Shown here: one piece after another, positions 1,071 through 37,879 of the stretch
Layout: every line of letters starts with the position of its first letter
How positions within the stretch are numbered: position 1 is the first letter of the stretch
Origin: an uncultured delta proteobacterium
GTDB taxonomy: Bacteria > Desulfobacterota > Binatia > Binatales > Binataceae
Length of the DNA: 64,000 bases
Direction of reading: 5' to 3'
Assembly: GCA_963756155.1 (NCBI GenBank)
Contig: CAVWMQ010000001.1
Span: 423,592-487,591 of the forward strand
Notes under the pieces: generated by a model
Told to the model about the DNA's origin: nothing
The model's input: only the letters and a program-made list of their open reading frames with translations
Database searches by the model: none
Position numbers and translations under genes: made by a program

Positions 1071-1073
1071 TCG

Positions 1074-3197: not shown

Positions 3198-3300
3198 CTC
3201 TGGCCGTCTGGCGTCGCTTCGATGCCAAACCGTTCGCTGCTTAAACGGCGCGCGGTGTGCGAGTTGTATCGACGCGGCGCGCGGCGATAAGCTCAGCGCG

Positions 3301-3642: not shown

Positions 3643-3992
3643 GCGGGGTCGGACACAAGGAACTTCACTTCCTGCTCGACAGCGCGGGCGCGCTGATCGT
3701 TTACCAGGAGAAAAAAGCATCGTGGGCCGGGGTGCTCGCCTTCTCCAGCGAGGACAAGGCGCGCGAGTTCTGCCGCCTGAGCAATCTCGACGTCAAGGAA
3801 ATCGGCGCGCTCTCGACCTCCGATCCCGAAGCGGTCGCGCAACTGGTCAACGCCGTCAAGCGCCGCGCGATTCGAAACCTGCTGCTCGATCTCGACTACG
3901 TGACTGGGCGCTGCGTCCAGGTCGAGTTCGAGGGCGACAGCTTCGGCAAGTCGGCGGAGCGCCAGTTTACGCCCGAGCATAATCCGGCCTGA
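3639..3992 (+). CDS. Hypothetical protein (117 aa), translationally coupled to the previous gene
   Basis: Start overlaps the stop of 3301..3642. No recognisable motif. Confidence 0.4.
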   Translation: MSGVGHKELHFLLDSAGALIVYQEKKASWAGVLAFSSEDKAREFCRLSNLDVKEIGALSTSDPEAVAQLVNAVKRRAIRNLLLDLDYVTGRCVQVEFEGDSFGKSAERQFTPEHNPA

Positions 3993-4063
3993 GATCGCTG
4001 CGCGCTCGCGGGAGCGTGTTCGACAAGTCGGCAACTCGGAACTCGACAAATCTCAATCCGAAA

Positions 4064-5296
4064 ATGGCTGTCACCTTGCAAGATATCGAGGCCGCGCGCG
4101 TGCGGCTGCGGGACGTAATCAAGCCGACGCCGCTGATGCCGAGTGCGACTCTTGCGCAGATGCTCGATGCCGACGTTCGTCTCAAGCCCGAGAACCTGCA
4201 GAAGACCGGCTCATTCAAGATTCGCGGCGCCTATAATCGCATCGCCGCGATGTCGCCGGTCGAGAAAGTGCGCGGCGTGATCGCGGCGTCGGCCGGAAAC
4301 CACGGACAGGCGCTGGCGTACGCGGCCTCGCACGCGGGCGTGAAGGCGACGATCGTGATGCCGACGACCGCGGCGACCGCGAAGATCGATGCGACCCGGA
4401 ACTACGGGCAGGCGGTGGTGCTCGAAGGCGCGGACTACCAGGGGGCGCGCCGCGCCGCCGAGCGGATTTGCATCAAGACCGGCGCGATATTCGTCGACGC
4501 ATACGACGATCCGTTCGTGATCGCGGGGCAGGGAACGATTGGACTGGAGATCGTCGACGAATTTGCGCCCCAGATCGTGATGGTGCCGGTCGGCGGCGGC
4601 GGACTTATAGCCGGCGTCACGGCCGCGCTTGCGGCGCGCGCGCCGACTGCTGAAGTGATTGGCGTCGAGGCGGCCGGCTCGCCACAATTGAGCGCGAGCC
4701 TCGCCGCGGGAGCGCCCGCATCGGTGGCGCGACCGGTCGACACGATCGCCGATGGTCTCGCGACCGGGCGCCTCGGCGCGCTCCCGTTCGAGATGATTCG
4801 GACGCGCGTGAAGCGCGTGGTCACCGTTGATGACTTCGAAATCGGCGAGGCGGTGCTGCTGATGCTCGAGCGGCTCAAGATGCTTGCCGAAGGCGCCGGC
4901 GCGGCCGCACTCGCGGGCGCGCTCAAAATCAAGGACCAGGACTACTTCAAGGGCAAGCGCGTGGTGCTGCTGATAAGCGGTGGAAATATCGACATCAACC
5001 TGCTCGACCGGATCATTGGACATGGACTGGTGAAGGTCGGGCGCCTGTACCGGCTCTCGGTCGACTTGCGCGACCGCCCGGGCGAGCTTGGCAAGCTGCT
5101 GTCCGCGGTCAGCGAGACGGGCGCGAACGTTCGCGCGATCGATCACGATCGGACCAGGCCCGATGTCGCGATCGGCGGTGCGCGCGTCATGCTGGAGCTG
5201 GAAACGCGGAGCCCCGAGCATATCGAGGCGATCCGCGCGCATCTCGCGCGCGCGGGTTATTCGATTAGTGAAGACGCTCAGATCCAGACCCGATAA
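4064..5296 (+). CDS. ilvA: Threonine ammonia-lyase (threonine dehydratase), PLP-dependent, with a C-terminal ACT-like regulatory domain
   Basis: PLP-lysine motif KTGSFKIRGAYN, SAGNHGQALAYAAS and the glycine-rich loop VPVGGGGLIAG. C-terminal roughly 80 aa resemble an ACT domain. Internal ATG at 4064 (MAVTLQDIEAAR) preferred over the listed 4016. Confidence 0.85.
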   Translation: MAVTLQDIEAARVRLRDVIKPTPLMPSATLAQMLDADVRLKPENLQKTGSFKIRGAYNRIAAMSPVEKVRGVIAASAGNHGQALAYAASHAGVKATIVMPTTAATAKIDATRNYGQAVVLEGADYQGARRAAERICIKTGAIFVDAYDDPFVIAGQGTIGLEIVDEFAPQIVMVPVGGGGLIAGVTAALAARAPTAEVIGVEAAGSPQLSASLAAGAPASVARPVDTIADGLATGRLGALPFEMIRTRVKRVVTVDDFEIGEAVLLMLERLKMLAEGAGAAALAGALKIKDQDYFKGKRVVLLISGGNIDINLLDRIIGHGLVKVGRLYRLSVDLRDRPGELGKLLSAVSETGANVRAIDHDRTRPDVAIGGARVMLELETRSPEHIEAIRAHLARAGYSISEDAQIQTR

Positions 5297-6383: not shown

Positions 6384-7580
6384 ATGGCCGCGATGGATCT
6401 GAATTTCACTCCGGAAGAAGAAAAGTTTCGCCTCGAAGTCCGGCGCTTCCTCGAGGAGAACGTCCCCAAGAGCGGGCTCAGCAATCAGCGCGAAGGCCGC
6501 GAGGACAAGGACTGGCTCGCGCGCGCAAAAGCGTGGCAACGCAAGCTCTACGAGGCCGGTTACATCGCGCTGGCGTGGCCCAAGGAGTACGGCGGGCAGG
6601 CGATGGATCCGGTGCGCCAGTCGGTCGTAAACGACGAGGTGGTGCGCGCGCGTGCGCCGTATATGGTTGGCGGATCCGGTCTGGGCATGCTCGGCCCGAC
6701 GCTTATCTCGTGGGGCACCGAGGAACAGCGCCAACGCTATCTTCCGAAAATACTCACCGCCGAGGAAATCTGGTGCCAGGGATATTCGGAGCCGGGCTCC
6801 GGTTCCGATCTTGCCTCGCTCAAGACCCGCGCCGAAATCGTTGGCGACGAGTTCGTGGTCAACGGGCAGAAAGTGTGGACTTCGGGCGCGCAATGGGCGG
6901 ACTGGATGTTCTGCCTGGTGCGGACCGATCCCGAGGCGCCCAAGCATCGCGGAATTTCCTACATCCTGATCGACATGCACGCTCCCGGCGTCACCGTGCG
7001 TCCGCTGGTCCAGATGACCGGCGACCGCGGCTTCAACGAGGTTTTTTTCGATAACGTGCGGGTGCCGCGCAAGAACCTGGTCGGCAAGCTCAACGAGGGA
7101 TGGCTGGTCGCGAACGCGACTCTGTTCCATGAGCGCAACATGCTGGGCGCTTCGTCGGGCAGCGAGCAACGCTTCAACCGCCTGCTCGCGCTCGCCAAGA
7201 CGATCAAGCGCAACGGCCGCCCGATCACCGAGGATCCGGTCATCCGCCAGCGCCTGGTCGATCTAGAAATCCGCGTCGATGCGATGCGTTACCACTCGAT
7301 GCGCCAGCTAACCGATCAGATTCGCGGCAGGAACCCGGGCATCGAGGCGATGATCAACAAGCTGGTCGGCACCGAGCTCAATCACGACCTCGCAACTGCG
7401 GCGATGGAAGTGATGGGCGACTACTCGATGCTCGCGCGCGAGGACGAGCAGGCGCTCGATCACGCGTTCTGGCCGTACGAATGGATGTTCTCGCTGGGGC
7501 TGGTGATTGGCGGCGGCACCTCACACATCCAGAAAAACATCATCGCCGAGCGCGGCCTCAAGATGCCGAAATCGCGTTGA
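6384..7580 (+). CDS. Acyl-CoA dehydrogenase family protein
   Basis: ACAD fold motifs (YGGQAMDP…, WCQGYSEPGSGSDLASL, WTSGAQWADW). Length 398 aa. Confidence 0.85.
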   Translation: MAAMDLNFTPEEEKFRLEVRRFLEENVPKSGLSNQREGREDKDWLARAKAWQRKLYEAGYIALAWPKEYGGQAMDPVRQSVVNDEVVRARAPYMVGGSGLGMLGPTLISWGTEEQRQRYLPKILTAEEIWCQGYSEPGSGSDLASLKTRAEIVGDEFVVNGQKVWTSGAQWADWMFCLVRTDPEAPKHRGISYILIDMHAPGVTVRPLVQMTGDRGFNEVFFDNVRVPRKNLVGKLNEGWLVANATLFHERNMLGASSGSEQRFNRLLALAKTIKRNGRPITEDPVIRQRLVDLEIRVDAMRYHSMRQLTDQIRGRNPGIEAMINKLVGTELNHDLATAAMEVMGDYSMLAREDEQALDHAFWPYEWMFSLGLVIGGGTSHIQKNIIAERGLKMPKSR

Positions 7581-7614
7581 GCAGCGCGGCACACAACTCC
7601 GGATCGGTGAGCAG

Positions 7615-8736
7615 ATGGATTTCGGACTAAGCGAAGAGCAGCAGCAACTCAAAACCAGCGCGCGCGAATTTCTCGCCGGCGAGTGCCCCACCACGGAGGT
7701 GCGCAAGGCGATGGCGAGCGAGGACGGCACGCTCGCCGCACTCTACGGCGGAATCGCGAAGCTCGGATGGCACGGGCTGATGGTGCCGGAGCAATTCGGC
7801 GGCGCGGGACTGGGGATGCTCGACATGACGGTGCTGCTCGAGGAAGCGGGCTTTGCCGCGATGCCGGGGCCGTTCCTCTTTTCCTCGGTACTCGCGGCGG
7901 GCGCGCTCAGGCTCGGTGGCTCTGAGGAACTGAAGGCAAAGTTCCTGGCCGCGATCGCGGAGGGCAAGGCAACCGGCACGCTGGCGATCGTCGAGAGCGG
8001 CGACAGCCTCGCGGCGGCGGATATCGCGACCAGCGCGAAAAAAGACGGCGCCGGATGGCGTCTCAGCGGCACCAAGATGTTCGTGCCGTATGCCAACCTC
8101 GCAGACTTCGTGATCGTGGCGGCGCGCACGTCGAGCGCTCCCGACGCGGTCGGATTTTTCCTGGTCGAGACCAAGTCGCCCGGCGTGCGGATCAAGATGA
8201 TGAAGAACCTGGATCTCACGCGCCGCGTCGCGACGCTGGAACTCGACAACGTCGCTGCCGCGCCCAACGGCGAGCTAAAGGGCGGCGCCACGATGCTCGC
8301 GCGAATGATCGACATCGGCGCACTCGCGGTTGCGGCGGATTCGCTCGGCGGCTCCGAGCGCGCGCTGGAGATGGCGGTCGACTACTCGAAAGTGCGCGAG
8401 CAGTTCGGCAAGCCGATCGGATCGTTCCAGGCGCTCAAGCACGCGGCGGCCGAGATTGTCGCGGACCTGGAGCCAGCGCGCGCGCTGCTCTGGTACGCCG
8501 CCTATGCGCACGACGCGGTTCCGGAGAGCGCGCCGCGCGCCGCCGCGATGGCCAAGGCGCGGCTCAGCGATATCTACAGCCGCACTACTGATCGCGCGGT
8601 GCTGATGCACGGCGGAATCGGCTTCACCTGGGAGCATGACATTCATCTGTGGTTCAAACGCGCACGCTTTGACGAATCGTACTTCGGCTCGCCGTCCTAC
8701 CATCGCGAGCGCGTCGCGCAACTGGGCGGCTACTGA
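7615..8736 (+). CDS. Acyl-CoA dehydrogenase family protein, second of an adjacent pair
   Basis: MDFGLSEEQQQLKTSAREF… start, GLMVPEQFGGAGLG, and C-terminal ACAD helices. Begins 35 nt after the preceding ACAD. ATG at 7615 preferred over the listed 7507. Confidence 0.8.
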   Translation: MDFGLSEEQQQLKTSAREFLAGECPTTEVRKAMASEDGTLAALYGGIAKLGWHGLMVPEQFGGAGLGMLDMTVLLEEAGFAAMPGPFLFSSVLAAGALRLGGSEELKAKFLAAIAEGKATGTLAIVESGDSLAAADIATSAKKDGAGWRLSGTKMFVPYANLADFVIVAARTSSAPDAVGFFLVETKSPGVRIKMMKNLDLTRRVATLELDNVAAAPNGELKGGATMLARMIDIGALAVAADSLGGSERALEMAVDYSKVREQFGKPIGSFQALKHAAAEIVADLEPARALLWYAAYAHDAVPESAPRAAAMAKARLSDIYSRTTDRAVLMHGGIGFTWEHDIHLWFKRARFDESYFGSPSYHRERVAQLGGY

Positions 8737-9884: not shown

Positions 9885-11651
9885 TCAGGCGCGCGCGGGC
9901 AGCGAAGGTCCGCTGCTGCCGACGGCGCGCAGGATGTCAGTCTTGGTGACGATCCCCTGAAGAGCACCGTCGTCCGAGGTGACCAGCAGCATCTGCGGAC
10001 CGCCCTCGCGCGTGAGCAACCGCAACGCCTCGGTGAGATCGGAATCCTCGCGCATGCGAACCGCGTCGCGGTCGGTGAGGTCGTTGACTTTGGAGGTGTC
10101 CCAATTCTCGGGCGCGACGGTGCTGAGTCTCGACACCGAGATAGTTCCAGCGACGGTGCTCTGATCGTAGACCGGAAAAATATTGTGGCGATGGTGCGCG
10201 GCAACGCTCTGCGCGAATTCACGGAGCGTCGCATCGCCCTGCACTGATACCACCCGGCGCTGCATCACGTCCCGCACCATCATGCCGGCAAGATCCGCGA
10301 GCTTCGCGGTTTCGTGCAGATGCTGATCGCCGGAGACGGAGGCTTCGCCCGAGATCGCATAAGCGACCGCGGCGCCAATCAGGCTCGGGATGATGTAGGA
10401 ATGGCCGCCGGTGGTTTCGGCGACGAACACCACCGCGGTCAGCGGCGTCTTGTAGCCGGCCGCGATGAACGCCGCCATCCCGACCGCGGCATACAAATCG
10501 AATGCGGGAGTGTGGACGACCGATTGCGCATACGCGCTGCCGATCGCGCCGCCCACCAGCAGCAGCGGCACGAACATCGCGCTCACGCCGCCGGAGCCGA
10601 GCGAGCAGATCGTCGCGACCATCTTGAGCGCCGCGAACACCAGCAGCATCTGCGACGGATGCGGGTCGCTCAGCACGTAGCGCACCGCTTCGTAGTTGGG
10701 GCCGATCGGAATCAGCCCTCCATGATAGATGCTCACGAACAGCAGACCGCATAGCCCCGTGCCGAGACCGCCGGCCATCAGCTTGATCGTATGCGGCATG
10801 TCTGCGGTAAGAAAAAATCTGCGCACGCGGCGAAAAGTGATGTCGTAAACGAGTGCGATGAGGCCGATGCCCGCGCCGAGCAGCGCCGACCAGATCAAAT
10901 CGACATCCTTGAAGGTCGTGCTGCCGGCAAAGCCGAACAGCGGCTCCGCACCCACGATCGCGACCAGCGTAGCGTACGAAACCACCGACGCGATCAGCGA
11001 GGGCAGCAGCGCCTCGTGGGCGAGGTCGTCCTTGTAGGGCATCTCGAGCGCGAAGACCAGGCCGGTGAGCGGCGCGCGAAACACTGCGGCCATCCCGGCT
11101 CCCGCGCCGCTGATCAGCATGATGCGGCGATCGCGCAGCTCGAGGCCGAAGCGCCGCAGCCGCGTCCATAGCCACGATCCGATCGCGCCGCCGCCGTAGA
11201 TGCTCGGGCCCTCGAGCGCCGCACTGCCGCCAGAGCCGACCGTCGTCACCGCGGCCAGCAGCTTCCACCAGAATGGATGTACGTTAATGTCGCCCTGATG
11301 CTCGTGATAGGAGCGGATGATCTCCTCGGTCGAGTGCTCGTCGGGATCGGGTGTGCGGTACTGCATGATCAGCCCGGTGATCAGAAATCCGATCACCAGT
11401 CCCGGGACGATCGTCCAGTGATGCGCGAGGTAGAACGGCAGCACCCGAGGCCAGATCAGGCGCAGGATCAGCACCGTGATTCCGGTGATCACCAGGCCCG
11501 TGACGACTCCGATGATCGGGGCGACGAGCAGCCACTTTTGGATGTCGCGCGAGTAGGTCTCGGTCAGGTCTTCGTTGACCAGCGCGGTATATTTGCGCAG
11601 CCTCGGATGGCTGAGCAGCCTGGACTCGAAGACCCTCGTAAGCAAGCCCAC
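9885..11651 (-). CDS. ClC-family chloride/anion channel with C-terminal tandem CBS domains
   Basis: ClC motifs (GSGGSAALEGPS, FRAPLTGLVFALEM, many TM helices). C-terminal roughly 150 aa carry two CBS-like repeats. Confidence 0.8.
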   Translation of the reverse strand: MGLLTRVFESRLLSHPRLRKYTALVNEDLTETYSRDIQKWLLVAPIIGVVTGLVITGITVLILRLIWPRVLPFYLAHHWTIVPGLVIGFLITGLIMQYRTPDPDEHSTEEIIRSYHEHQGDINVHPFWWKLLAAVTTVGSGGSAALEGPSIYGGGAIGSWLWTRLRRFGLELRDRRIMLISGAGAGMAAVFRAPLTGLVFALEMPYKDDLAHEALLPSLIASVVSYATLVAIVGAEPLFGFAGSTTFKDVDLIWSALLGAGIGLIALVYDITFRRVRRFFLTADMPHTIKLMAGGLGTGLCGLLFVSIYHGGLIPIGPNYEAVRYVLSDPHPSQMLLVFAALKMVATICSLGSGGVSAMFVPLLLVGGAIGSAYAQSVVHTPAFDLYAAVGMAAFIAAGYKTPLTAVVFVAETTGGHSYIIPSLIGAAVAYAISGEASVSGDQHLHETAKLADLAGMMVRDVMQRRVVSVQGDATLREFAQSVAAHHRHNIFPVYDQSTVAGTISVSRLSTVAPENWDTSKVNDLTDRDAVRMREDSDLTEALRLLTREGGPQMLLVTSDDGALQGIVTKTDILRAVGSSGPSLPARA

Positions 11652-12088
11652 GCGATGGATCCTCCTCCCCCGGAGTGATTTTTTAATCTATCTCATCCGA
11701 ATGAGATTTTCGGCATCGACGGCCGCGCTTGTTCCTACCTGATACAAGTAGCGGACACCTGTGTTGCACTTCTGCTACATGGCCGCTCATTTTTGATCCG
11801 CTCGGATTTTCGAATCTGATAGCGCGGCGATGGAAAGGCGAGGCAACGACTAACAACATGAGAGTAATCCAACTTCGGGAGTCCACGCGTCGTTACGCAC
11901 TCTTGAGGAGTCATTAGCCGTGACAAGAGATGCTCCTGCACAGTGTATCTAGAAGGTTGCAATCTCTACCTTGTGGTGGCACGGCAATTGGATTGATGAG
12001 TGGAACTGGAGATGTTTGTCGCGGGTTTAGTCATCGTCATGAGGCATGAAACTTCGGTGACCCGAATTCGTCAAATCTTCATCACGTT

Positions 12089-12553
12089 ATGAGTATCGAA
12101 GACGAGAATCAGGAATCGACTAATCCGTGCGTGCGGATTTTTCTGGTCGAGGATAACCCCGATCACGTCTTCATCGCCTTGACTGTGATTCGGCAGGTTC
12201 TCGGCGACGGAATCGAGATGCTGCACGCGCAAAACGCTGGCGAGGCGCTCGACATGATCGGCCAATTCACCGAGCACGATCGCCCGGACCTCTTCCTGGT
12301 CGACTTGCGCCTGCCTGACAACGGCGGATTCTCGGTGCTGTCCGCCGCGCGCTCGAGCGAAGCCTGCGAGGGCGTCCCGATGTTCGTGATCACGAGCTCG
12401 ATGTTCGATCGCGACATCGCCGAGAGCTACGCCTTGGGTGCATCTGCGGTACTGTCCAAACCGCTCTCGCGCGCGCGGCTTCGCGAGGAGCTGGTAAGAA
12501 TCGGCGCGCTGCCGCTCAGCGCTAAGCCCCTCAACCCCACCTACCGGCAGTAG
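12089..12553 (+). CDS. Stand-alone response regulator receiver domain (CheY-like)
   Basis: IFLVEDNPDH…DLFLVDLRLPDNGG…PMFVITSS…ASAVLSKP receiver-domain pattern (acid pocket, phospho-Asp, conserved T/S and K). No output domain. Confidence 0.8.
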   Translation: MSIEDENQESTNPCVRIFLVEDNPDHVFIALTVIRQVLGDGIEMLHAQNAGEALDMIGQFTEHDRPDLFLVDLRLPDNGGFSVLSAARSSEACEGVPMFVITSSMFDRDIAESYALGASAVLSKPLSRARLREELVRIGALPLSAKPLNPTYRQ

Positions 12554-17557: not shown

Positions 17558-18007
17558 CTATGGGCTCGGGAGGCGCGTCCAATTCACCGGGTAGCCTTTG
17601 CAGCTCCCCCGCACCGCCAGGATCTCGGTGAAGTGATTGGGGTCGGTGACCGTCATTACCACGTCGACCGTCGTCGCACTCAGCGAGCCGGCAACGCCGC
17701 ATAGCTGCTTGGCTCGAACCAGGTTGGGCACCGAGCGATCCCAGGTGCCGCGCCACACAACAGTGCCGGGATGCATCTCCGCATTCCCGGTTACCAGGGT
17801 CGCAACGTAGTTGATTCCCAGTACGTTGTTATTCAGGCCGATGACCACCTGGAGCGGCCCGTGCTTGTAAGTCGCGGACCAGTTTCCCACCAGCCCCTTC
17901 GCCAGGTTCGGCGGACCGCTCGGAGGCGGTGGCGGCGGAGGAGGCGGCGGCAGCGGGGTGATGGTCTCGGTGCACGACATCGCCGCGCACACGACAACCA
18001 CTGCCAC
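17558..18007 (-). CDS. Putative lipoprotein carrying an 11-residue polyproline tract
   Basis: N-terminus MAVVVVCAAMSC is lipobox-like. ITPLPPPPPPPPPPPSGPP is encoded by a ccg/cct/cca run around 17895-17945. Confidence 0.45.
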   Translation of the reverse strand: MAVVVVCAAMSCTETITPLPPPPPPPPPPSGPPNLAKGLVGNWSATYKHGPLQVVIGLNNNVLGINYVATLVTGNAEMHPGTVVWRGTWDRSVPNLVRAKQLCGVAGSLSATTVDVVMTVTDPNHFTEILAVRGSCKGYPVNWTRLPSP

Positions 18008-18348
18008 TATCGAGAGCAGGAATCTCGCGAACGGACGGCGCGATCATCGATTGCGCGAGTCGCTCGTGACTTCGGCGAGACTTCGAAAAATTCGGCAGAT
18101 CGCATGGCGCAAGAGCTTATGTGCGCCGCCCCAACTGTTCAAACGGGCAGGGGCAGGGATGACCCCTGCACTCACCTCCACACAAGAAGCCCGGCTCCGT
18201 TGTCGCCGGCAGAGAAAAGTGCGTCACATTCACAACCGCCCGAAACGCATCACAGGCGCATTCGATACAAGCTCTGACGTAATCGATCTCCGATAGCTGT
18301 GGCAGTCTGCCGCGTGTTGTACACTGCGCGCGGAGGCAAAGGACGCGC

Positions 18349-19539
18349 GTGCTTTTCGACATTTTCCGCCGAGACCAGAGGATTGACTTGATACGCAGCG
18401 CCGCGAGGCTGGTGATCGCGACGCTCATGATCGCCGCGATGCTTCCGGTGCCGCTGCGAGCCGCCGACCAACCCGCGACCTCCGCCGATTCCTCGGCGAG
18501 CAAAGCCGAACTGCTGCGCGACGTGATGCGCAAGTTCGCCGCCGGTCAGAAAATCCCTCCCGCCGAAATGCAGGAGTTCGTCAACGCGCAGAACGACGGC
18601 CTGATGAACGGCCCCGCGATCGGCGAGCCGGTTCCCGATTTCCATCTTCCCGACCAGAACGGCAAGGATTGGTCGCTCAATCAGCTGATGGGTCCCAAGG
18701 GCCTGCTGCTGGTCTTCACCCGGAGCGCCGACTGGTGCCCGTACTGCCGCACCCAGCTCGTCGAGCTCGAGCAGTCGCGCGCGGCATTCGCAAAACAGGG
18801 CGTCAAAATCGCCTCGATCAGCTACGACTCCGAGGCCGCACTCAAGCGCTTCGCCACCGCGCATCACATCGGCTATCCGATGCTCTCCGACCAGGGCAGC
18901 GCGGTGATCCGCAAATTTGGCATCCTCAATACCAACATCCCGAGCGACCACAAGTTCTACGGGATTCCGTTCCCCGGCGAGTACCTGATCGCACCCGACA
19001 CCATCGTGCGCGACAAACATTTCCTGCCCGACTTTCGCGATCGCGTGACCGCCTCCGAGGTGCTGCTCTACAATTTCGGCGCGGCGGCGGGAAATGATTC
19101 CACGAAGATCGGGACGGACGACGTGAAGGCGCTGGTCACGCTATCGGCCGATCATGCGGCCCCCGGCCACGAGCTGGGCATCGCGGTCGATTTCACGCTG
19201 CCGCCCGGCTCGCATCTGTACGGGCAGCCGCTGCCCGACAATTACATTCCACTCACTATCGCGTTGGCGCCGGAGCTGGTTGCAAATCAGAGGTTCGAGT
19301 TTCCCAAGGCGACGCCGATCAAGTTCGCCGCGCTCGGCGAGACGCTCCCCGCCTACACCGGCAAGTTCCGCGCGACCGGCCGCGTGCTGGTCAAGTCGGA
19401 CTTGAAGCCCGGCGACTACCAGCTCGAAGGGACGCTCCATTTCCAGGAGTGCAACGATCAGATCTGCAAGCTCCCGCAGACGCTACCCTTCGCGATGCCG
19501 CTTAAGATCGATCCGATGCAATTCCCGCCTGACCGTTAG
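18349..19539 (+). CDS. Secreted thiol-disulfide oxidoreductase: redoxin (AhpC/TSA-like) domain fused to a C-terminal DsbD-alpha-like domain
   Basis: GTG start with GGAGG 8 nt upstream. Signal-like N-terminus. Redoxin segment FTRSADWCPYCRTQLVELEQ…KIASISYDS. C-terminal roughly 140 aa (HLYGQPLPDNYIPLTIA…FQECNDQICKLPQTLPF) resembles the N-terminal immunoglobulin-like domain of DsbD with its Cys pair. Confidence 0.65.
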   Translation: MLFDIFRRDQRIDLIRSAARLVIATLMIAAMLPVPLRAADQPATSADSSASKAELLRDVMRKFAAGQKIPPAEMQEFVNAQNDGLMNGPAIGEPVPDFHLPDQNGKDWSLNQLMGPKGLLLVFTRSADWCPYCRTQLVELEQSRAAFAKQGVKIASISYDSEAALKRFATAHHIGYPMLSDQGSAVIRKFGILNTNIPSDHKFYGIPFPGEYLIAPDTIVRDKHFLPDFRDRVTASEVLLYNFGAAAGNDSTKIGTDDVKALVTLSADHAAPGHELGIAVDFTLPPGSHLYGQPLPDNYIPLTIALAPELVANQRFEFPKATPIKFAALGETLPAYTGKFRATGRVLVKSDLKPGDYQLEGTLHFQECNDQICKLPQTLPFAMPLKIDPMQFPPDR

Positions 19540-19561
19540 GCTGTGGCAGACCTCCGCAGCA

Positions 19562-19580
19562 GGGGCTGACCCCGCACCCA
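19562..19580. repeat. Imperfect direct repeat copy 1 (GGGGCTGACCCCGCACC), partner at 19980..19998
   Basis: 15 of 17 identical to GGGACTGACCCTGCACC at 19980. The two copies bracket the regulator gene remnant 19655..19972. A CAGCAG hexamer precedes copy 1 and follows copy 2. Confidence 0.5.
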
Positions 19581-19654
19581 GTACCACTTCGGAAGGGAAT
19601 GAAGCGGCCGAACATGTATTCACTCTTACGAGCGAACAACAACTCCCCCAATCT

Positions 19655-19972
19655 GTGGCCTTCGAAGAGATTGGAGAACATCAATTCTTTTTGCCTGCCG
19701 TGCTGTGGTGGAGAGGCGAATTGCATCTGTGGCGCGGCGATCAAGTTTCAGCGGATAGAGATTTTCGGGAGATGATCGCCGTTGCGCGGCGCATCGGTTC
19801 GAAAGCATACGAATTGCGCGCCACGACGAGCCTGGCGCGGCTGCTCGCCGAGCAGGGCAAGCGCGACGAGGCGCGTGCGATGCTCGCGGACATCTATAAC
19901 CAATTCACCGAAGGCTTCGACACCTCCGACCTGAACGACGCCAGGGCGCTGCTCGATGAGCTAGGGGAGTAA
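19655..19972 (+). pseudogene. Gene remnant: only the C-terminal roughly 105 aa of a large adenylate/guanylate-cyclase/ATPase/TPR-type (LuxR/SARP-like) regulator
   Basis: Sequence …ELRATTSLARLLAEQGKRDEARAMLADIYNQFTEGFDTSDLNDARALLDELGE is the very characteristic C-terminal tail of roughly 1000-aa regulators. No upstream body is present; the preceding gene ends at 19539. Confidence 0.55.
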
Positions 19973-19979
19973 CGCGGTA

Positions 19980-19998
19980 GGGACTGACCCTGCACCAG
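19980..19998. repeat. Imperfect direct repeat copy 2 (GGGACTGACCCTGCACC)
   Basis: See copy 1. Lies at the boundary where GC content drops to about 50%. Confidence 0.5.
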
Positions 19999-20022
19999 CA
20001 GATCGGTAACTCAGCCGCAATC

Positions 20023-20382
20023 TCACGGCACGCGCGGAGTATTCGCCGCTCCGAGGGTCTTCCGCGCCACATCAAATGCTTCCGATGCGGCGCGCCGACC
20101 CTCCAGAATGTCTTCGGCGGCTATGAGGAACTTTGACTCGATGTTCTGCGTCACACAAATATAGCGTCCGATCGTCAGAGTTTCTAGCTCTTCCAATTCA
20201 TCCTGCGTGAACACGGTTCGGAGCAGATTGAGTACATGGTCGTACTGCCACCAAGGTTGAAACTCCCCGTTCTGGCGACCGAAAGCGAGATGAAAGCCGA
20301 TGCTCCCAATAAATGCCTGATAGGCTTTGAATAAAGCATAGAGATATTCGCCGCTCACTAGGCGGGCCTTCTCCACGGGCAA
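20023..20382 (-). CDS. Hypothetical protein in the low-GC segment; possibly a longer gene starting at ATG 20500 with an internal frameshift
   Basis: ORF with a TTG start. An in-phase-shifted ATG ORF (MTDIVTTELYQQFFTYLAGSIPSIEELTEAFKRSIETAICP…) ends exactly where this ORF begins. GC about 50% versus about 68% in the flanks. Confidence 0.35.
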   Translation of the reverse strand: MPVEKARLVSGEYLYALFKAYQAFIGSIGFHLAFGRQNGEFQPWWQYDHVLNLLRTVFTQDELEELETLTIGRYICVTQNIESKFLIAAEDILEGRRAASEAFDVARKTLGAANTPRVP

Positions 20383-20475
20383 ATGGCCGTTTCAATGGAC
20401 CGTTTAAAGGCCTCGGTCAACTCCTCGATACTTGGAATCGATCCTGCCAAGTACGTGAAGAACTGTTGATATAGT

Positions 20476-20829
20476 TCAGTAGTCACGATGTCCGTCATTG
20501 CAATATGGGAGGGGCCTCAAGGTACGTCTGCGCGAGTGCATTCCATATTTTTGAATTGCAGCCAGTCGGTGTTCATTCGACGCGCGTCTTGCCTCTAGAA
20601 ATGCCGATGAAACCAGGTTCTGTTGAGTGTCGAGCGCATCGCCGAGACGCTTGAGTTCTTTTTCGTTATCGGTTCGCAGTTGCTCGAGTTTTACGTCGAA
20701 CGAATGCCGGATCGATTGGACAATCCATTCAGACACTGAACGGCGAAAGAGATAGATGAGGAGAGCGGTGACTGCACTGCTGCTGAGGAAACCCAAGAGC
20801 CATTTCAAAATGGACCTTATGATGGTCAC
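20476..20829 (-). CDS. Hypothetical membrane-anchored protein (N-terminal TM helix plus a coiled-coil-like region) in the low-GC segment
   Basis: GTG-start ORF. ILKWLLGFLSSSAVTALLIYLF hydrophobic segment, then KLEQLRTDNEKELKRLGDALDTQQ. Confidence 0.4.
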   Translation of the reverse strand: MTIIRSILKWLLGFLSSSAVTALLIYLFRRSVSEWIVQSIRHSFDVKLEQLRTDNEKELKRLGDALDTQQNLVSSAFLEARRASNEHRLAAIQKYGMHSRRRTLRPLPYCNDGHRDY

Positions 20830-20879
20830 CGAATCCGTGGGCAGGCTCCTAGGGAGATTGTCTATGAGGTCGTTAAGTT

Positions 20880-21421
20880 GATCCAGTACGGATTCGTCAA
20901 TCGAAACTCGCAGCGTGGACTAATTCCTCGCCAAACCGCGGGCTGCGCGAGTTCGGCCTGCTGATCGTGAGATTTGAACACCTCGGCACCGCTATAAACC
21001 TGCGGCCTATCGGTCAGCATCGCCTTCTCGAGCGCCTCGATCGAGCAGGCCGAGTAGTTGTTGATGATTAGATCAAAGTAGCTGCCAAAATACGGCGGGC
21101 TGGCAGGAGCAGATAATCCTCTGAAAGCGGTGTCAGTCGAAAGCGATCTCCTTGAAGGCGCACAAAACCTAGTGATGCGTTAACCGCGAGGATGGTTTCG
21201 GCGGGACGATGGGCGATCTTGAGTGCTTCGCAGATTTCCGCAAGGCTCCGAGGCTTCTCGTGCAATAGCGTAAAGAGTCCGAGCTTGTGCGCGAGCAGCA
21301 CGGCTGGACGGCCATAGACGCTGAAGATGACGTCCCAAAGCGGCTGGTCGCCGACGCGCGGCTTGCGAATCTTATCCGCCTTGGCCATCGATCGCTTCCT
21401 CCGAGTCACGGTTCGTCGCAT
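20880..21421 (-). pseudogene. O-methyltransferase-like gene remnant: N-terminal dimerisation/winged-helix domain only, frameshifted and truncated
   Basis: LWDVIFSVYGRPAVLLAHKLGLFTLL…SLAEICEALK…ETILAVNASLGFVRL…RLTPLSEDYLL matches the N-terminal domain of plant/bacterial O-methyltransferases. The reading continues in another frame (…SPPYFGSYFDLIINNY…) and ends near 20880. No SAM-binding domain is present. Confidence 0.5.
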
Positions 21422-21464
21422 GCGAGACGGTGGCGAAGCCCGAGGCCGGTCTTTCCGCGGCCTG

Positions 21465-22175
21465 CTAGCGCCGGTCTTCGACCTTCTCTACTTGCGGCGG
21501 CCCATGCGCGGAGGCGAACGACGCGAGTTGCGCGTCGCCGGCGATTTGGTGCGACAAGTCCTGCAGCGACGAGTCCAGCGGCGACTGAACCGCCTCGGTC
21601 AATTCGGCCAGGCCGTCCTGGTTGGCGATATATCCATGCACCGGAAGAAACGCATCGAGGCTCACGATGTCGACCGCCACCAGCGCCGCATGCTTCGGAC
21701 TCCACATCACCGGCTTCAGATGAATCTTCGCGACGCTGGTAACCTCGGACAAAATCTGGTTGGAGCGCGAATCTTCGAACGTGATCGTCACCCGGATATA
21801 CCCATCGAGGACCCCGTATGCGGGCGTGGTCGTGATGTCTTCCATCGCGACCAAGTCGCCGTCGCGCGCGGCGCTTTCGAGGTCCGGCGAATTCGCGACT
21901 TTCTGGAAGTTATTTTTCAGCACACTCTTGATCGCACCGCTGAGCGCGGGTTGCAGCACCACCGTGCAACTGTCCTCGCTGGTGCCGCATCCATACCATT
22001 GCAGGCCCGACGGCGGCGCCTCGAGCAGCGTTACGCTCGTCGCAATCGGCCGCGGCGAATCCGGCTGCTGGTGATAGAAGCTCGCGGGCATCGGGCCCGA
22101 GGTGTGAAAGCATCCTGCCGAGCCCAAGGGCAACAAGCCCAGGCCGGCCAGGATCGCGGTGCGAACGCGCGACAC
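21465..22175 (-). CDS. Putative lipoprotein (hypothetical)
   Basis: Signal peptide with lipobox (LGLLPLGSAGC). No recognisable domain. Confidence 0.5.
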   Translation of the reverse strand: MSRVRTAILAGLGLLPLGSAGCFHTSGPMPASFYHQQPDSPRPIATSVTLLEAPPSGLQWYGCGTSEDSCTVVLQPALSGAIKSVLKNNFQKVANSPDLESAARDGDLVAMEDITTTPAYGVLDGYIRVTITFEDSRSNQILSEVTSVAKIHLKPVMWSPKHAALVAVDIVSLDAFLPVHGYIANQDGLAELTEAVQSPLDSSLQDLSHQIAGDAQLASFASAHGPPQVEKVEDRR

Positions 22176-22246
22176 CCGAGTCTACTCGCCGAACCCGCGG
22201 TTCGACTCGACCGCCGTCCGCGCCCGGCGCCGCGAGACGCGGCGCT

Positions 22247-23446
22247 TCAGTTGAGCTTGTAGACCCGCGCGACGTTCTCCCCCAAAATCGCGCGGCGCCC
22301 CGAGTCCTTCATCGGCGCGATCATGCCCTCGAGTTCCTCGAGATAGTTCCCCGGATGATCGGGATGCGGATAGTCGCTGGCCCAGAAAAATTTATCCTCC
22401 CCCACAATTCCCATCAGCGCCGCGATCGTGCGCTCGTCAGGGTCGGCGGAGATATAGCACTGACGGCGGAAATAATACGATGGCTTCTCTTTGAGCCTGA
22501 CGGTCGCCCCCAGCGTGGTGCCGGAGTAGATTGCATCGCCGCGATCGAGAAAGTAGCCGATCCATCCGGCCTGCGATTCCAGCACAATCGTGCGCAGCTT
22601 CGGAAAGCGATCGAATACGCCGTACTGGAAGAAGGTTCCGAACGCATGCTGCACGCCCTGGCCGGCGAACAGATCGTAATACCACGACGCCCACGCGAAA
22701 TTATCGTAGCGATGATGAATTCCGAACTCGCGCGGCTCGAAGGTCGGATGAATCGCGAACGGCACGTCGAGATCCTGCGCCGCCGCGAACACCGCGTCGT
22801 GGCGCGGGTCGCCGTGCGGCACCCGCGAAATCGTGAACGGGCACACGAACGCGCCGCGGCATCCGTCCTTGACCGCGCGCTGCAGCTCGCGCGCCGCCTC
22901 GGCCGGATCACCCAGCGACAGATGCGCGATCGGGATCAGCCGGCCGCCGGAGTCGCGGCAGAAGTCCGCGATCCAGCGGTTGTAAGCGCGGCAGTATGCG
23001 GCCGACAGTTCCGGATCGAAGAGTTCGGCTTCCCAGAGCAGCCCGATGGTCGGATACAGAATCGCCCTGGCCATCTCCTCCCGATCGAGCAGCGCCAGGC
23101 GTTCTTTCATGTTCATAGTGCCGAACGCCGCGCCCTTCATGTAAGTGTCTTCGGGGCGCGGCTGGAAGCTGCGGATTTCCTCGGCCTTCAAGTTGCCGCG
23201 CATCACCATCTCGCGAAGTTTTTTCGAGTCCTCGACGCGCTTGCCCATTCCGCCGAGCGTGCCCAGCACCCCAGGCACCGTCATCTTGGCGCGCTGCCGA
23301 TCGATCTCCAGGTACTCGAAGCCGTCGTCGCCGACCCTGATGCGCATCGCGCGCTCGCGGTACTTGGGGTCGATATATTTCTCCCACAGGTCGGGCGGCT
23401 CGAGGATGTGTCCGTCGCAATCGATCACCATGTCTGTGGTCTTCAC
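22247..23446 (-). CDS. Amidohydrolase-2 family metal-dependent hydrolase/decarboxylase (ACMSD-like TIM barrel)
   Basis: MVIDCDGHILEPPDLWEKYIDPKYRERA… start and overall architecture typical of PF04909-type amidohydrolases. Confidence 0.7.
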   Translation of the reverse strand: MKTTDMVIDCDGHILEPPDLWEKYIDPKYRERAMRIRVGDDGFEYLEIDRQRAKMTVPGVLGTLGGMGKRVEDSKKLREMVMRGNLKAEEIRSFQPRPEDTYMKGAAFGTMNMKERLALLDREEMARAILYPTIGLLWEAELFDPELSAAYCRAYNRWIADFCRDSGGRLIPIAHLSLGDPAEAARELQRAVKDGCRGAFVCPFTISRVPHGDPRHDAVFAAAQDLDVPFAIHPTFEPREFGIHHRYDNFAWASWYYDLFAGQGVQHAFGTFFQYGVFDRFPKLRTIVLESQAGWIGYFLDRGDAIYSGTTLGATVRLKEKPSYYFRRQCYISADPDERTIAALMGIVGEDKFFWASDYPHPDHPGNYLEELEGMIAPMKDSGRRAILGENVARVYKLN

Positions 23447-23459
23447 GGCCTCTACTCCT

Positions 23460-24386
23460 CTAAAAGATCGCGAGCGGGTTTACCGGCGATGCGGTCCCTC
23501 TCTCGAGAATCAGCGGCGCCATCGTGAACAGGAACTGGTAGCGATTGTCCGCCGCCGCGACGTCCGCAACCGCGTCGAGGTCGGCGTTGTCGATCAGGTG
23601 GATGCCCATCATGACCAGCGTGCCAACGTGGATCGGCAGCGGGATGCCCTGGTAGCCGCTCGGCACGGCGTCGCTCACCGCGTCGCATCCGAGCACCGCA
23701 ATTTTGCGATCGTGGAGCCACGGCAGGCACTGCGCGTCGAGCCCCGGCATCCCCTCGCGAAATGGATCCCATCCGCCCTTCACCTTTCGCCGCGCCGAGC
23801 GCCCGGTGCGAAGCATCAGCACGTCACCCTCTTCGACGTGGACCTGCTGCGCTTTCTCCGCGGCCTCGAGGTCCTCGGGATAAATTCGATCGTTCGGCTC
23901 CAGCCATTCGATCTTTTTGAGCCTTGGGATGTCGAGCAGGATGCCGCGGCTGACAACCCCCGTGCGGGTCACGTCGATCGCGCATTTCTTCGCGCCGTGC
24001 GAGCCAACTTCCTTCGCATCGAAACCGTTGTACATCTTGCCCGCCCAGAACACGTGGCAGAGCGCGTCGAGATGGGTGTTGGCCATTCCGTGCGGCGCAA
24101 TCGCGAAGTAGTCGCCCGAGTACGGCATCGGCGTGGAGAGCGCGTCGTCGCCCGCTTGCACCATCAGATGGGTTACAGGATTCGGATTGTCGGCGGCGGG
24201 GATGGTCGCGAGCGGCAGCGCCATCGAAACGGTCTGGCCGCTCTGCACCAGCTTGGCCGCGGCGGCGCGTTTGGCGTCGGTGATGAAGTTGAGGGCGCCG
24301 CGCTCGTCCTCCTTACCCCATCGGCCCCAGTTGCTGATCTTGTCGAACAGTCCTATGACTTCCGCGGGGGTGAGCTTGGTTGGCAT
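23460..24386 (-). CDS. Cyclase-family protein (kynurenine formamidase/arylformamidase-like)
   Basis: GMANTHLDALCHVFWAGKMYNGF resembles the His-rich metal site of putative cyclases. ATG at 24386 is preceded by AAGGAGA, so it is preferred over the listed 24515. Confidence 0.7.
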   Translation of the reverse strand: MPTKLTPAEVIGLFDKISNWGRWGKEDERGALNFITDAKRAAAAKLVQSGQTVSMALPLATIPAADNPNPVTHLMVQAGDDALSTPMPYSGDYFAIAPHGMANTHLDALCHVFWAGKMYNGFDAKEVGSHGAKKCAIDVTRTGVVSRGILLDIPRLKKIEWLEPNDRIYPEDLEAAEKAQQVHVEEGDVLMLRTGRSARRKVKGGWDPFREGMPGLDAQCLPWLHDRKIAVLGCDAVSDAVPSGYQGIPLPIHVGTLVMMGIHLIDNADLDAVADVAAADNRYQFLFTMAPLILERGTASPVNPLAIF

Positions 24387-26037: not shown

Positions 26038-26304
26038 TGGCAAGCGTCCGCCTCCAATCTTGTGACTGAATATTGTGCGGATGCCCGCGCAGTGGGCATC
26101 GATCGTCGCGTCCCGAGCGACATTGCAGAATACAATTGCAGAATTCACGATGGCATTCTTCTTGCGCGATGCGGATGGTTCCCATGCTTACGATGGAAAG
26201 ACTCTAGGCCTTGAGACTGAGAAGAAATCAGCCTCGCGATCGAGGAGATCTTCTGACCGCGAAGACGTCCCGCTTCCAGAGAGCGGATACCGCAAGGAGG
26301 AGAA

Positions 26305-27966
26305 ATGGCCGAACCAGCTGAAAAACCCAAAATGGTGCCCACGCTGGGACTGACGGGTGTCACCGTCAACGCGATGGCGCTGATCGCGCCTGGAGCCTTT
26401 CTGTGGATCACATTCGTCGTTCAAGCGGGCTACGCTTATCCGTCCGGGATAACCATGTGGGCCGGTATTTTTGCCGCTCTCATGCTCGCGTACGCCACCG
26501 CTATCTCGTACTCGGAACTCGCTAAGCTCTATCCAGGAGCAGGCAGTTCCTATTTCTTTGCGGAACAGGCATTTCTCAGCAAGACGCACGCTTTCAAGTT
26601 TGCCCGCATCGCCAAATTCACGATGGGATGGGCGTCGCACCTGTATTACTGGGTCTACCCCGGCGCCATGGTTGCCACGATCGGGATCATGATCGGATAC
26701 ATCGTCGGCAACTTTTTTCCTAACAGCATGAACGCCGGAACGCCGGGCCCCGTGTTCATGGCGCTGGTCGCAGTCATCTCTTCTTTCGCAGTTGCATACA
26801 TCGCGTTTCGTGGTGTGAACGGCTCGACGATGGTCAACATCGTCATCAATGCGATCCAAATCACCGCGCTGCTGTTCTTCTCCGCACTAGCGATCGCGTA
26901 CCGGGTCGGTCATCCGGAAGGGTCGCACGGCCTGGCCCTCGATGGCACCACCAAGGTCTTGCACTACGCGTTGAGTGGCGACACGCCGGCACATCCAAGT
27001 GCGTTTTCGGTCATTGCACCGCACAACTTCAGCTATGTCATGCTGCAAGCCACGATCGCGATTTTCTTGCTGGTCGGCTTCGAGTCGATCACCTCGCTCG
27101 GCGAGGAAGCGAAGGACCCCAAGCGCGATATCCCGCGCGGGGTGCTGCTCTCGCTGACGATCCAGGGTCTGTTCTGCTACATGATCGAATACTTCGCCGC
27201 CAACTATTTCATGTCGAGCGCCTACAGCCTGGCCGACGCAAAAGGCTCAGCGGCGCCGATCGGCGACATGATGACGATCATCGGTAACACCCTGCTCGGC
27301 GGGCATGGCCAGGCGTTCATGATGATCGAGGCGCTGACCGTGTTCCTGGCCCTGATAGGCACCACCCTTAGCTGTATCAACACGGGTGCGCGCGTCACCT
27401 ACGCGATGGGACGCGACGAGGAAGTACCAGAGCATTTCGGCATGCTGCATGGCGAAAACCTGACGCCTCATCGTACGATCTGGACGCTTGCGGTTATTTC
27501 CGCGGTGCTGGGCGCGTACGCGGCGCTTTATTTCTTCGCCGGCAGTTCCGCGCCGGACGACAAGACGATCGCAACGCTGCCACATAACATATGGTACGCG
27601 GTCGGAATGAGCTCCAATGCGTCTCTTACGGCTTTGCCTAACGGACTGGCGCTGGTCACCCTGATTTCAAACTTTGGAACATTCGTGGTCTATGGGTTAA
27701 CCAATCTCTGTTGCATAGTTGCGTACCGCGAGCACCATCAATTCCACGGCCTGAAACACATGGTGATACCGGTGTTCGGCGCGGTTGCGAACTTTGCCTG
27801 CATGGCCTTCTACGTCATCGGCCCGATTGAGGGACTCGGCAGCGTAAAAGAGCCTCTGATGGCGGTCGCCATAGCCATCATCTGGGGCGTCTACGGAGCT
27901 TTCTACTTCGTCCGCAACTCGAGGAAGAAGGGCAAGGAGACGGTGTTGATTAGCAAGCCTGCCTGA
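26305..27966 (+). CDS. APC-superfamily amino-acid/amine permease
   Basis: 12-TM APC architecture. RBS GCAAGGAGGAG upstream. Intrinsic terminator downstream. Confidence 0.8.
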   Translation: MAEPAEKPKMVPTLGLTGVTVNAMALIAPGAFLWITFVVQAGYAYPSGITMWAGIFAALMLAYATAISYSELAKLYPGAGSSYFFAEQAFLSKTHAFKFARIAKFTMGWASHLYYWVYPGAMVATIGIMIGYIVGNFFPNSMNAGTPGPVFMALVAVISSFAVAYIAFRGVNGSTMVNIVINAIQITALLFFSALAIAYRVGHPEGSHGLALDGTTKVLHYALSGDTPAHPSAFSVIAPHNFSYVMLQATIAIFLLVGFESITSLGEEAKDPKRDIPRGVLLSLTIQGLFCYMIEYFAANYFMSSAYSLADAKGSAAPIGDMMTIIGNTLLGGHGQAFMMIEALTVFLALIGTTLSCINTGARVTYAMGRDEEVPEHFGMLHGENLTPHRTIWTLAVISAVLGAYAALYFFAGSSAPDDKTIATLPHNIWYAVGMSSNASLTALPNGLALVTLISNFGTFVVYGLTNLCCIVAYREHHQFHGLKHMVIPVFGAVANFACMAFYVIGPIEGLGSVKEPLMAVAIAIIWGVYGAFYFVRNSRKKGKETVLISKPA

Positions 27967-36927: not shown

Positions 36928-37266
36928 GGCCACCGCTGGCTGCGCTCCGGGCGCCGCAACCCGGCGCAGCGGCGGCACCCTGCCCTACTGTTAGGTATAA
37001 ATACTAACTTTACAGTTTGAGACCGGTCGGGTGCCTGCTCGTTGTGCAACGTCGGCGAGCATTGCGCACAGAGCTAACTAAAACGCCTCTAGGCTAAAGT
37101 TATGAAACTTAGGCTGCCGCGCCATGGTACCGCGACTTCGCCTGTTTTTCAGGCATCACGCACCCTGGAATCAACGTCGATCGTGCAGCCGTCCTCTGGA
37201 AGTTCGGCGGCGGCAGACCTAATTCAAATAAAATACTGTTTGAAGTATATTTTTCCTTACTTTCAT

Positions 37267-37295
37267 TTGACACATCTACCATTTGTCGTTATCTT
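37267..37295 (+). promoter_or_regulatory. Sigma70-like promoter upstream of lrp: TTGACA-N17-TATCTT
   Basis: Consensus -35 hexamer, 17-nt spacer and a near-consensus -10 hexamer. About 28 nt upstream of the lrp ATG, inside an AT-rich leader. Confidence 0.5.
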
Positions 37296-37322
37296 CATCG
37301 AACCCGACACGAGGTTAGCCTT

Positions 37323-37879
37323 ATGAAGTTCGGCGCTGACTCTCCGGATCTTGACGCCATCGACTTGCAGATTCTAGCCACCCTGCAAGAGCACGGCCGC
37401 ATCCCGCTGGTAAAGCTCGGCGAGCAGGTCGGGCTCAGCGCGCCGTCAGTGAACGAGCGCGTGAAGAAACTCGAAGATAGCGGCATCGTCACAGGCTACC
37501 ACGCGTCCGTCGACGCGCGCAGGCTCGGCAAGGACGTCGCCGCGTTCATCGGCGTTTCGATCGCGCATCCCAAGACCATTCCGCTTTTCGAGGAGACCAT
37601 CGAGCTGCTCGAAGAAGTCCTTGAGTGTCATCACGTGACCGGCCAGCACACCCTTTTGCTGAAAGTGAAAACCGACAACACCTCGTCGCTGGAGCGGCTG
37701 ATCAGTTCCATCCGCTCGATCGAGGGGGTGGCGCGGACTGAGACGATGGTGGTGCTGTCGACGCTGACTGAGCGCGAACAGATCGCGGTGCGTGCCAACG
37801 GCGAGTCGCACGAGGCCGGCAACGGCCGCCGTCATCGCCACGCGCCCACGCGCAACGCGCTCCCTGACACCAAGCGAGT

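Follow-up and report, generated by a model that had tools for sequence, protein, structure and literature searches.

The segment at positions 19540-21464 of a 64,000-nucleotide (nt) stretch of DNA from an uncultured bacterium of the family Binataceae (contig CAVWMQ010000001.1; the whole stretch is called the window below) is very probably a non-functional, decayed patch of accessory DNA. It lies between two convergent core genes of Candidatus Binataceae and holds three pseudogene remnants. These are the tail of a cyclase/AAA_16/TPR-type regulator, a frameshifted gene of a protein family that we designate family X, and the N-terminal part of an O-methyltransferase (OMT) gene. A preliminary description of the window had presented the middle of the segment as a two-gene cargo. 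We found that this cargo is one gene, which was killed by three 1-nt deletions and whose loss of the start codon is polymorphic in independent assemblies. What appeared to be an orphan two-gene module is thus a single dead gene with a dead stub on either side, and the locus offers no candidate system. It is instead a small and well-bounded example of the decay of accessory DNA between convergent genes in uncultured Binataceae.

One broken gene in place of two orphan genes

The minus strand in the middle of the segment has three open reading frames (ORFs): 20023-20382 (119 codons), 20358-20498 (46 codons), and 20476-20829 (117 codons). A Pfam scan of these ORFs gives no domain. In the three-frame translation the pieces run head to tail, passing through frames 1, 0, 2, and back to 1. 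We joined them into a conceptual fusion protein of 268 amino acids (aa) and used it as a query. The fusion matches 14 proteins. Nine of these are near-full-length homologues (P0001-P0009; 266-292 aa, 45-56% identity, 94-100% query coverage), and the five shorter matches cover 48-69% of the query. The alignment of the fusion with its homologues (A1) is colinear over all three junctions. The tblastn matches of P0001-P0003 on the window span 20859-20029, and the stretch that does not match coincides with the loss of frame.

A 1-nt deletion accounts for each junction. Frameshift 1 (20548-20552, minus strand) is located in a homopolymer of the coding strand, which has five A although the frame requires six, between the protein motifs AIQK and IWNA. 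Frameshift 2 (approximately 20505-20507, minus strand) falls between ...EAPP and IAMTDIVTTELY... (IAMTD...). Frameshift 3 (20381-20383, minus strand) is a deletion in a coding-strand T run, between SIETAI and LPVEKARL. The preliminary description had supposed that the ORF 20023-20382 might be extended through a frameshift to an upstream ATG (at 20498), and this proved right. The three deletions make the region 20023-20829 of the minus strand a pseudogene of a single gene of about 270 codons, and not a two-gene module. An intact member of family X would be expected to have a single uninterrupted frame of about 260-295 codons. The copy in the window is interrupted by its three 1-nt deletions, and its conceptual fusion has colinear similarity to the members over the full length. 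Both ORFs reported as orphans do exist, but together with the 46-codon piece they are one broken gene with homologues over 94-100% of its length, and neither separate genes nor orphans.

The frameshifts in independent assemblies

We compared the segment with four independent short-read assemblies from other sequencing runs (L009-L012), which were reached through a 106-aa OMT stub on record in them. The first of them, a 2388-nt contig from the Logan assembly of run ERR10755937 (L009), matches the window at 19103-21491 with 99.96% identity and has all the frameshifts. Identity to the window is 99.7-99.9% for the other three. All the frameshifts are contained in L010 (21491-20282), but only that of the OMT gene in L011 and L012, whose ends, at 20829 and 20845, look like branching of the assembly graph. 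Frameshifts 1 and 2 are identical in L009, and frameshift 3 is identical in both L009 and L010. L009 and L010 share one insertion or deletion (indel) and have no other: the loss of 1 nt at 20828, which destroys the GTG start codon of the pseudogene and is the only difference between L009 and the window. Such a start-codon polymorphism is what one expects once selection on a gene has ceased.

The frameshifts are real. It is exceedingly unlikely that they are assembly or sequencing errors that hide intact genes. Short homopolymer runs, the typical error site of long-read assemblies, do contain three of the four 1-nt deletions of the segment. However, the short-read assemblies reproduce the sequence at 99.7-99.96% with the same frameshifts, and the genes on both sides of the segment are intact and colinear with those of the closest genome.

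Boundaries of the segment

The segment is 1925 nt long and lies between the stop codons of two convergent conserved genes, as delimited by blastn synteny. The left flank is an intact plus-strand gene (18349-19539) of an AhpC/TSA peroxiredoxin fused to a DsbD_N-like domain (396 aa; Pfam matches PF00578, E = 6e-31, and PF11412). The right flank is an intact minus-strand gene (21465-22175) that encodes a 236-aa protein with a lipoprotein-like signal and without a Pfam domain in a Pfam scan.

The closest genome was found by scanning species-representative genomes with the flanking peroxiredoxin. It is a Candidatus Binataceae metagenome-assembled genome (DATDGX010000052.1, designated L004) that is syntenic with the window at 85-87% nt identity across at least 13 kb. 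The blastn matches link window positions 18414-19527 to positions 5380-6499 of L004, and window positions 21493-23462 to positions 6575-8538. Both flanking genes have colinear counterparts there, with 82% aa identity for the peroxiredoxin and 69% for the lipoprotein-like protein (240 aa in L004). The stop codons of these two genes are 17 nt apart in L004, compared with 1925 nt in the window. Compared with its nearest genome, the window thus differs by an indel that comprises the entire segment, with both the TPR and the OMT remnants. The preliminary description had suspected the scar of an insertion or recombination event and had proposed an alignment to the syntenic region. That alignment supplied the boundaries, and the suspicion is well founded: the segment is absent from L004, and the homology with the OMT gene of a 96%-identical relative ends inside it, at 20945.

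More distant relatives (L005 and L006) are not syntenic with the window. A metagenome scan with the peroxiredoxin for more syntenic relatives gave a single distant, non-syntenic locus, and an exact look-up of the peroxiredoxin sequence returned no record.

The O-methyltransferase remnant

The OMT remnant occupies positions 20943-21388 of the minus strand and corresponds to residues 1-149 of about 322. A minus-strand ORF of 117 codons (21068-21421) carries the PF08100 dimerization domain (E = 3.9e-9; 36.6 bits against a cut-off of 25.6). In tblastn, OMT proteins of about 322 aa align to the window via residues 1-149 only, with 52-94% identity, and in two frames, 21388-21107 and 21104-20943. The change of frame is due to a 1-nt deletion near 21105-21108, seen as CCC to CC relative to the contig L014 described below. 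The catalytic half, which binds S-adenosylmethionine (SAM; PF00891, Methyltransf_2), is missing, and the homology ends at residue 149, window position 20943. The earlier account of a truncated N-terminal fragment with one frameshift is thus accurate, but the homology extends from 21388 to 20943 and does not reach 20880. The remnant shares the N-terminal dimerization/winged-helix domain with class I SAM-dependent O-methyltransferases (PF08100 + PF00891), but it lacks the catalytic half and is frameshifted, and therefore it cannot be an enzyme.

Two contigs from the Joint Genome Institute (L014 and L015) are 96% identical to the window at 21683-20945. In both of them the lipoprotein-like gene is followed by a nearly full-length OMT gene with the Methyltransf_2 half, and the homology to the window stops exactly at 20945. 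Neither the 3' half of the OMT gene nor the downstream sequence of L014 has a match anywhere in the window. These data imply that the OMT gene is older than the strain of the window and that its truncation took place where it meets the low-GC piece. A spacer of 113 nt (20830-20942, 54% GC, not assigned to a strand) separates the breakpoint at 20944/20945, which forms its right end, from the family X pseudogene. No promoter-like site was detected in this spacer or upstream of either minus-strand ORF.

The OMT gene of the related contigs is itself broken. In L014 (296-1320) and L015 it is divided into parts of 177 and 163 aa by a frameshift between SISM and APALAWP, a site different from that in the window. 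In a more distant relative (L013, 6414-7442) it is split into 167 and 147 aa. Comparison of these sequences suggests that the gene may have been lost repeatedly and independently in the clade.

The regulator remnant and the direct repeat

The third remnant is located on the plus strand at 19601-19972 and represents approximately the last 105-125 codons of a cyclase/AAA_16/TPR-type regulator gene. The annotated ORF (19655-19972, 105 aa) shares 73-80% identity with the C-terminal ends of many proteins that bear names such as TPR repeat protein, predicted ATPase, or adenylate cyclase, the last two in Joint Genome Institute annotation. Its Pfam matches (TPR_12, TPR_10, and TPR_MalT) are all below the curated cut-offs. 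The preliminary description took it for a C-terminal-only remnant, and we agree: the Guanylate_cyc and AAA_16 domains are absent, and only the tail is left. Two details can be added. The homology begins at about 19601, with the end of the peroxiredoxin gene 62 nt upstream. In addition, about 65 aa are deleted in frame at approximately 19658-19660, as follows from split high-scoring segment pairs against P0191, P0193, and P0194. The motif EAAE..TL.SEQQLP..VA lies 63-68 residues upstream of AFSAVGE in homologues and abuts it in the window; thus about two TPR units have been lost.

The tail shares the C-terminal end ...FTEGFDT.DL.DA.ALLDEL with zinc-ribbon/guanylate-cyclase/AAA_16/TPR signaling proteins. 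In contrast to them, the window has no cyclase or ATPase domain, and even the tail has the internal deletion of about 65 aa. The full architecture (zinc ribbon, guanylate cyclase, AAA_16, TPR) is seen in locus L017, where the gene (920-4276) is itself broken into parts of 704, 330, and 91 aa. Another locus (L016, 4001-4390) has a 129-aa stub of such a gene beside transposases. The 120 best matches of the TPR tail are all at most 257 aa long, and many of these short ORFs are on contigs of 50-435 kb. For this reason C-terminal-only or fragmented copies of large cyclase/AAA/TPR genes seem to be common in these soil genomes, as far as such matches can tell.

The TPR remnant is bracketed by a direct repeat with the motif GGGRCTGACCCYGCACC. 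Copy 1 (19555-19578, with the 17-nt core at 19562-19578, plus strand) is 16 nt past the stop codon of the peroxiredoxin gene. Copy 2 (19973-19996, core 19980-19996, plus strand) directly follows the stop codon of the TPR remnant. The preliminary description gave the repeat its correct positions, 19562 and 19980, where the copies agree at 15 of 17 bases (20 of 24 in the extended form). The signal is weak, though: a pair with at least 15 matches of 17 was obtained in 21 of 100 dinucleotide shuffles of the segment, and a pair with 20 of 24 in one of 100. It is the best direct repeat in the segment, and it brackets only the 401 nt derived from the TPR gene, not the 1925-nt indel.

One may regard the copies as attachment (att) cores or as a target-site duplication left by a small mobile insertion that brought the TPR fragment. 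We consider this improbable. The position of the copies speaks for it, one at the upstream edge of the TPR-derived sequence and the other right after the stop codon, and so does the rarity of the 24-nt form in shuffled sequences. Against it, the 17-nt core is matched or beaten in about a fifth of the shuffles, and neither an integrase, a transposase, nor terminal inverted repeats are present in the 401 nt that the copies bracket. Four mismatches in 24 positions would imply that the repeat is older than the split from L004, yet L004 is without the segment. The recurrence of the motif, which the preliminary description proposed to look for at other islands or tRNA genes, was not observed. There is no further copy in the window, the window has no tRNA gene, and the motif is absent from loci L001-L017 except L009, which is a copy of this locus. 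Its absence from the 3' flanks of the TPR genes in L016 and L017, as from the other loci, also rules out that it is a conserved 3' flank of TPR genes. In sequence terms the repeat is probably a product of chance or microhomology, and marginally more than chance at best.

Composition of the segment

The GC content of the segment is 55.7%, compared with 63% in the flanks. The low-GC region reported earlier is real: the best 800-nt window within it (20107-20906, 49.7% GC) is the deepest GC trough of the whole 64 kb, about four standard deviations (sd) under the mean. The baseline, however, is about 63-64% (mean of 800-nt windows 63.7%, sd 3.3%) and not 68%. The GC content of third codon positions (GC3) is 0.84 in the peroxiredoxin gene and 0.81 in the lipoprotein-like gene, 0.71 in the TPR remnant, 0.64-0.76 in the OMT remnant, and 0.54-0.61 in the family X pseudogene.

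No recombinase or transposase was found among the ORFs and Pfam matches of 19540-21464, and none of the three remnants has a paralogous source within the window. An Rfam scan of 18000-23000 gave no family. Promoter-like and terminator-like sites in 19300-21700 do not exceed the expectation from shuffled sequences. Genes of tRNA and tmRNA are absent from the whole window.

Family X, a widespread family without annotation

The preliminary description proposed profile searches with the two orphan proteins. We built a profile of family X from the close homologues and searched it against 1.84 billion cluster representatives (clusters at 50% identity). At least 1385 cluster representatives were found at E <= 1e-3, and 576 at E <= 1e-10. 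Among the best 150 of the 1385 that were listed, most are single proteins of 255-295 aa. The family is thus broad, but the search led to no annotated family. Pfam, NCBIfam, PADLOC, and PHROGs scans placed neither the separate ORFs nor the close homologues in any family. For 61 diverse members there is no Pfam, NCBIfam, or PADLOC family, PADLOC-DB 2.0 gives no consistent match among them, and the family has no match to PHROGs models. Where the source gives any name, it is "hypothetical protein".

Two identities were considered and rejected. A weak PADLOC match to the DruG/LeoBC defense proteins was obtained for one member (P0112), at residues 29-155, which is largely upstream of its match to family X (97-332). 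A TrgA match was also seen in one member only, in the N-terminal region outside the conserved C-terminal domain. A few members, among them P0040 (412 aa) and P0112 (337 aa), have N-terminal extensions of approximately 95-150 residues without a Pfam match.

The first AlphaFold2 model, built from 10 sequences, was too poor for use (predicted local distance difference test, pLDDT, 59.8). The model from the alignment of 61 sequences is confident (pLDDT 94.4) and all-helical. It consists of one helix (residues 3-103), which starts with a hydrophobic membrane-spanning part followed by basic residues, and of a helical bundle (residues 107-273). Family X is therefore predicted from the model to be a membrane-anchored protein with a helical stalk and a C-terminal helical bundle. 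A Foldseek search with this model gave nothing significant (best E = 0.3 against PDB and 0.15 against BFVD), and a search of PDB sequences with the family profile gave no match.

In each of the eight loci checked, the GC content of the intact family X gene is 4-16 points under that of its surroundings. The gene always occurs singly, has no conserved neighbor, and is often adjoined by mobility genes. Among metagenome contigs, in L001 it is near a serine recombinase and transposases, and in L019 near a transposase and a Bro-N gene. On a plasmid of Photobacterium damselae a member (WP_109376121.1; assigned to the family by hhalign with a probability of 99.6%) directly follows the GmtY/VPA1269/GmtX trio of a Gamma-Mobile-Trio (GMT) island; Mahata et al. 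(bioRxiv 10.1101/2023.03.28.534373) include the GMT system of this plasmid in their supplement. A Thauera plasmid has a member between an integrase and an HNH endonuclease (hhalign probability 99.2%), and an Ewingella plasmid has one beside recombinases. A distant member of 286 aa, annotated as hypothetical, is encoded in a lambdoid phage of E. coli (URC09965.1 of phage vB_EcoS-733R5; L023; ON470608.1, 39997-40857; hhalign probability 96.6%), where it adjoins int and is beside tRNA-Arg. Among 5426 complete E. coli genomes, 11 have this gene on the chromosome. Family X behaves as horizontally moving single-gene cargo.

Other members of the family sit alone among housekeeping genes. Downstream of the gene for P0001, which is the closest intact homologue, each of the two contigs with this gene has a 72-codon ORF without a Pfam match (L001, 11281-11499; L002, 2252-2470), and this ORF has no counterpart in the window. 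Candidates for a conserved partner gene were rejected. The AurF genes beside family X in L003 and beside the OMT gene in L013 are just 21% identical, the two 188-aa genes downstream of it in L003 and L007 are unrelated, and so are the HNH genes in L008 and the Thauera plasmid.

The preliminary description suggested that the cargo could be a small defense or toxin-type module. What can be said in favor of this is circumstantial and concerns the family (integrase neighbors, the GMT island, the prophage), and no PADLOC match backs it. According to Mahata et al. (bioRxiv 10.1101/2023.03.28.534373), GMT islands abound in defensive and offensive cargo. Family X resembles the "morons" of GMT islands, prophages, and plasmids (Mahata et al., bioRxiv 10.1101/2023.03.28.534373) in being single-gene cargo beside integrase or recombinase genes. 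Unlike such cargo, the copy in the window is dead and has no mobility gene nearby. Family X is not among the GAPS systems with a reported predicted domain (Mahata et al., bioRxiv 10.1101/2023.03.28.534373). By analogy, a role in defense or exclusion would be a reasonable guess. A fuller picture can be drawn, which we hold to be rather doubtful as a whole: family X would comprise undescribed, widespread, solitary, membrane-anchored all-helical proteins that travel as low-GC cargo of mobile elements and possibly act in conflicts (phage exclusion, abortive infection, or membrane-acting defense), and the copy in the window would be a dead relic of one of them. The member in the E. coli prophage is a convenient candidate for bench work. 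If an intact member were characterized, many "hypothetical proteins" would gain a name and perhaps a function.

Interpretation and proposed history of the segment

The following order of events is proposed. An OMT gene would have been located downstream of the lipoprotein-like gene in the lineage of the window and L014. A low-GC family X gene would then have arrived horizontally and become joined to the OMT gene at 20944/20945, either together with or after the deletion that removed the catalytic half of the OMT gene at this junction, along with any sequence beyond that half. At the opposite end of the segment, only the tail of a cyclase/AAA/TPR paralogue would have survived. Finally, 1-nt deletions, mostly in short homopolymers, would have inactivated the family X gene three times and the OMT stub once. 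The GC3 values given above fit this order. We infer that the cargo was acquired by horizontal transfer, because family X shows a GC trough in every host checked and frequently has mobile-element neighbors. Probably no working protein is made from any part of the segment.

Several points weigh against a decayed patch with this history. The comparison set for the indel consists of one close genome (L004) and a few short metagenome contigs. With one outgroup the direction of the indel is undecided between a loss in L004 and a gain in the lineage of the window. The 119-codon C-terminal and 117-codon N-terminal ORFs are still open and translatable in principle. The closest intact member of family X is merely 56% identical to the pseudogene, too distant to point to a donor or a time of acquisition. 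Part of the low GC content of the pseudogene could be accounted for by AT-biased decay; the same GC trough in intact members counts against decay as its source.

There is an appreciable, though clearly lesser, chance that the segment is ancestral and was cleanly deleted in the lineage of L004, so that the window displays slow in-place decay of an old neighborhood of three genes, namely the regulator, the family X gene, and the OMT gene. At least part of the segment predates the strain of the window, as the OMT gene adjoins the 236-aa gene in a second lineage (L014 and L015), and its independent frameshift there and its split in L013 fit long-term relaxed selection. Yet L004 has just 17 nt between two intact convergent genes, and so clean a deletion is less parsimonious than an empty ancestral site; the GC3 of the pseudogene, far under that of the host genes, also speaks against this reading. 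If the segment were ancestral nevertheless, the verdict of three pseudogenes would stand, and the history alone would change. Persisting function would alter the verdict itself: the pieces could act as a split gene or as a pair of small proteins, a membrane-anchored coiled coil (20476-20829) and a soluble C-terminal domain protein (20023-20382). Both frames are open (117 and 119 codons), gene callers annotated a 117-aa product of 20023-20376 in L009, and the periodicity of GC content by codon position is still visible. We nonetheless judge such a pair to be very unlikely. Most of the best 150 family members listed are single colinear proteins of this kind of length (about 255-295 aa), the breaks fall within conserved blocks, and the 46-codon middle piece is stranded in a third frame. 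The 117-codon ORF finishes with about 22 out-of-frame residues, its GTG start is destroyed in two independent population samples, and neither ORF has a promoter-like site upstream.

The decayed patch that we favor resembles the pseudogene debris and strain-variable islets found between convergent core genes. It lies between two stop codons, is absent from the nearest relative, has an atypical GC content, contains only truncated or frameshifted genes, and has a start codon that is polymorphic in the population. It differs from such islets in having no recognizable mobility gene, tRNA, or convincing flanking repeat, and in its mosaic structure, which combines a single foreign-looking gene with two remnants that belong to host-type families.

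Other sites of the window

Four further troughs were detected among the 800-nt GC windows: 56380-57179 (53.1%), 11477-12276 (53.4%), 26056-26855 (55.1%), and 36984-37783 (55.2%). A second indel is located on the other side of the peroxiredoxin gene. Positions 1788-5380 of L004, approximately 3.6 kb of extra sequence that includes ORFs of 707 aa (DUF2141 domain) and 174 aa, correspond there to about 200 nt of the window (18210-18414). With indels on both sides of the peroxiredoxin gene, its neighborhood is variable on both sides.

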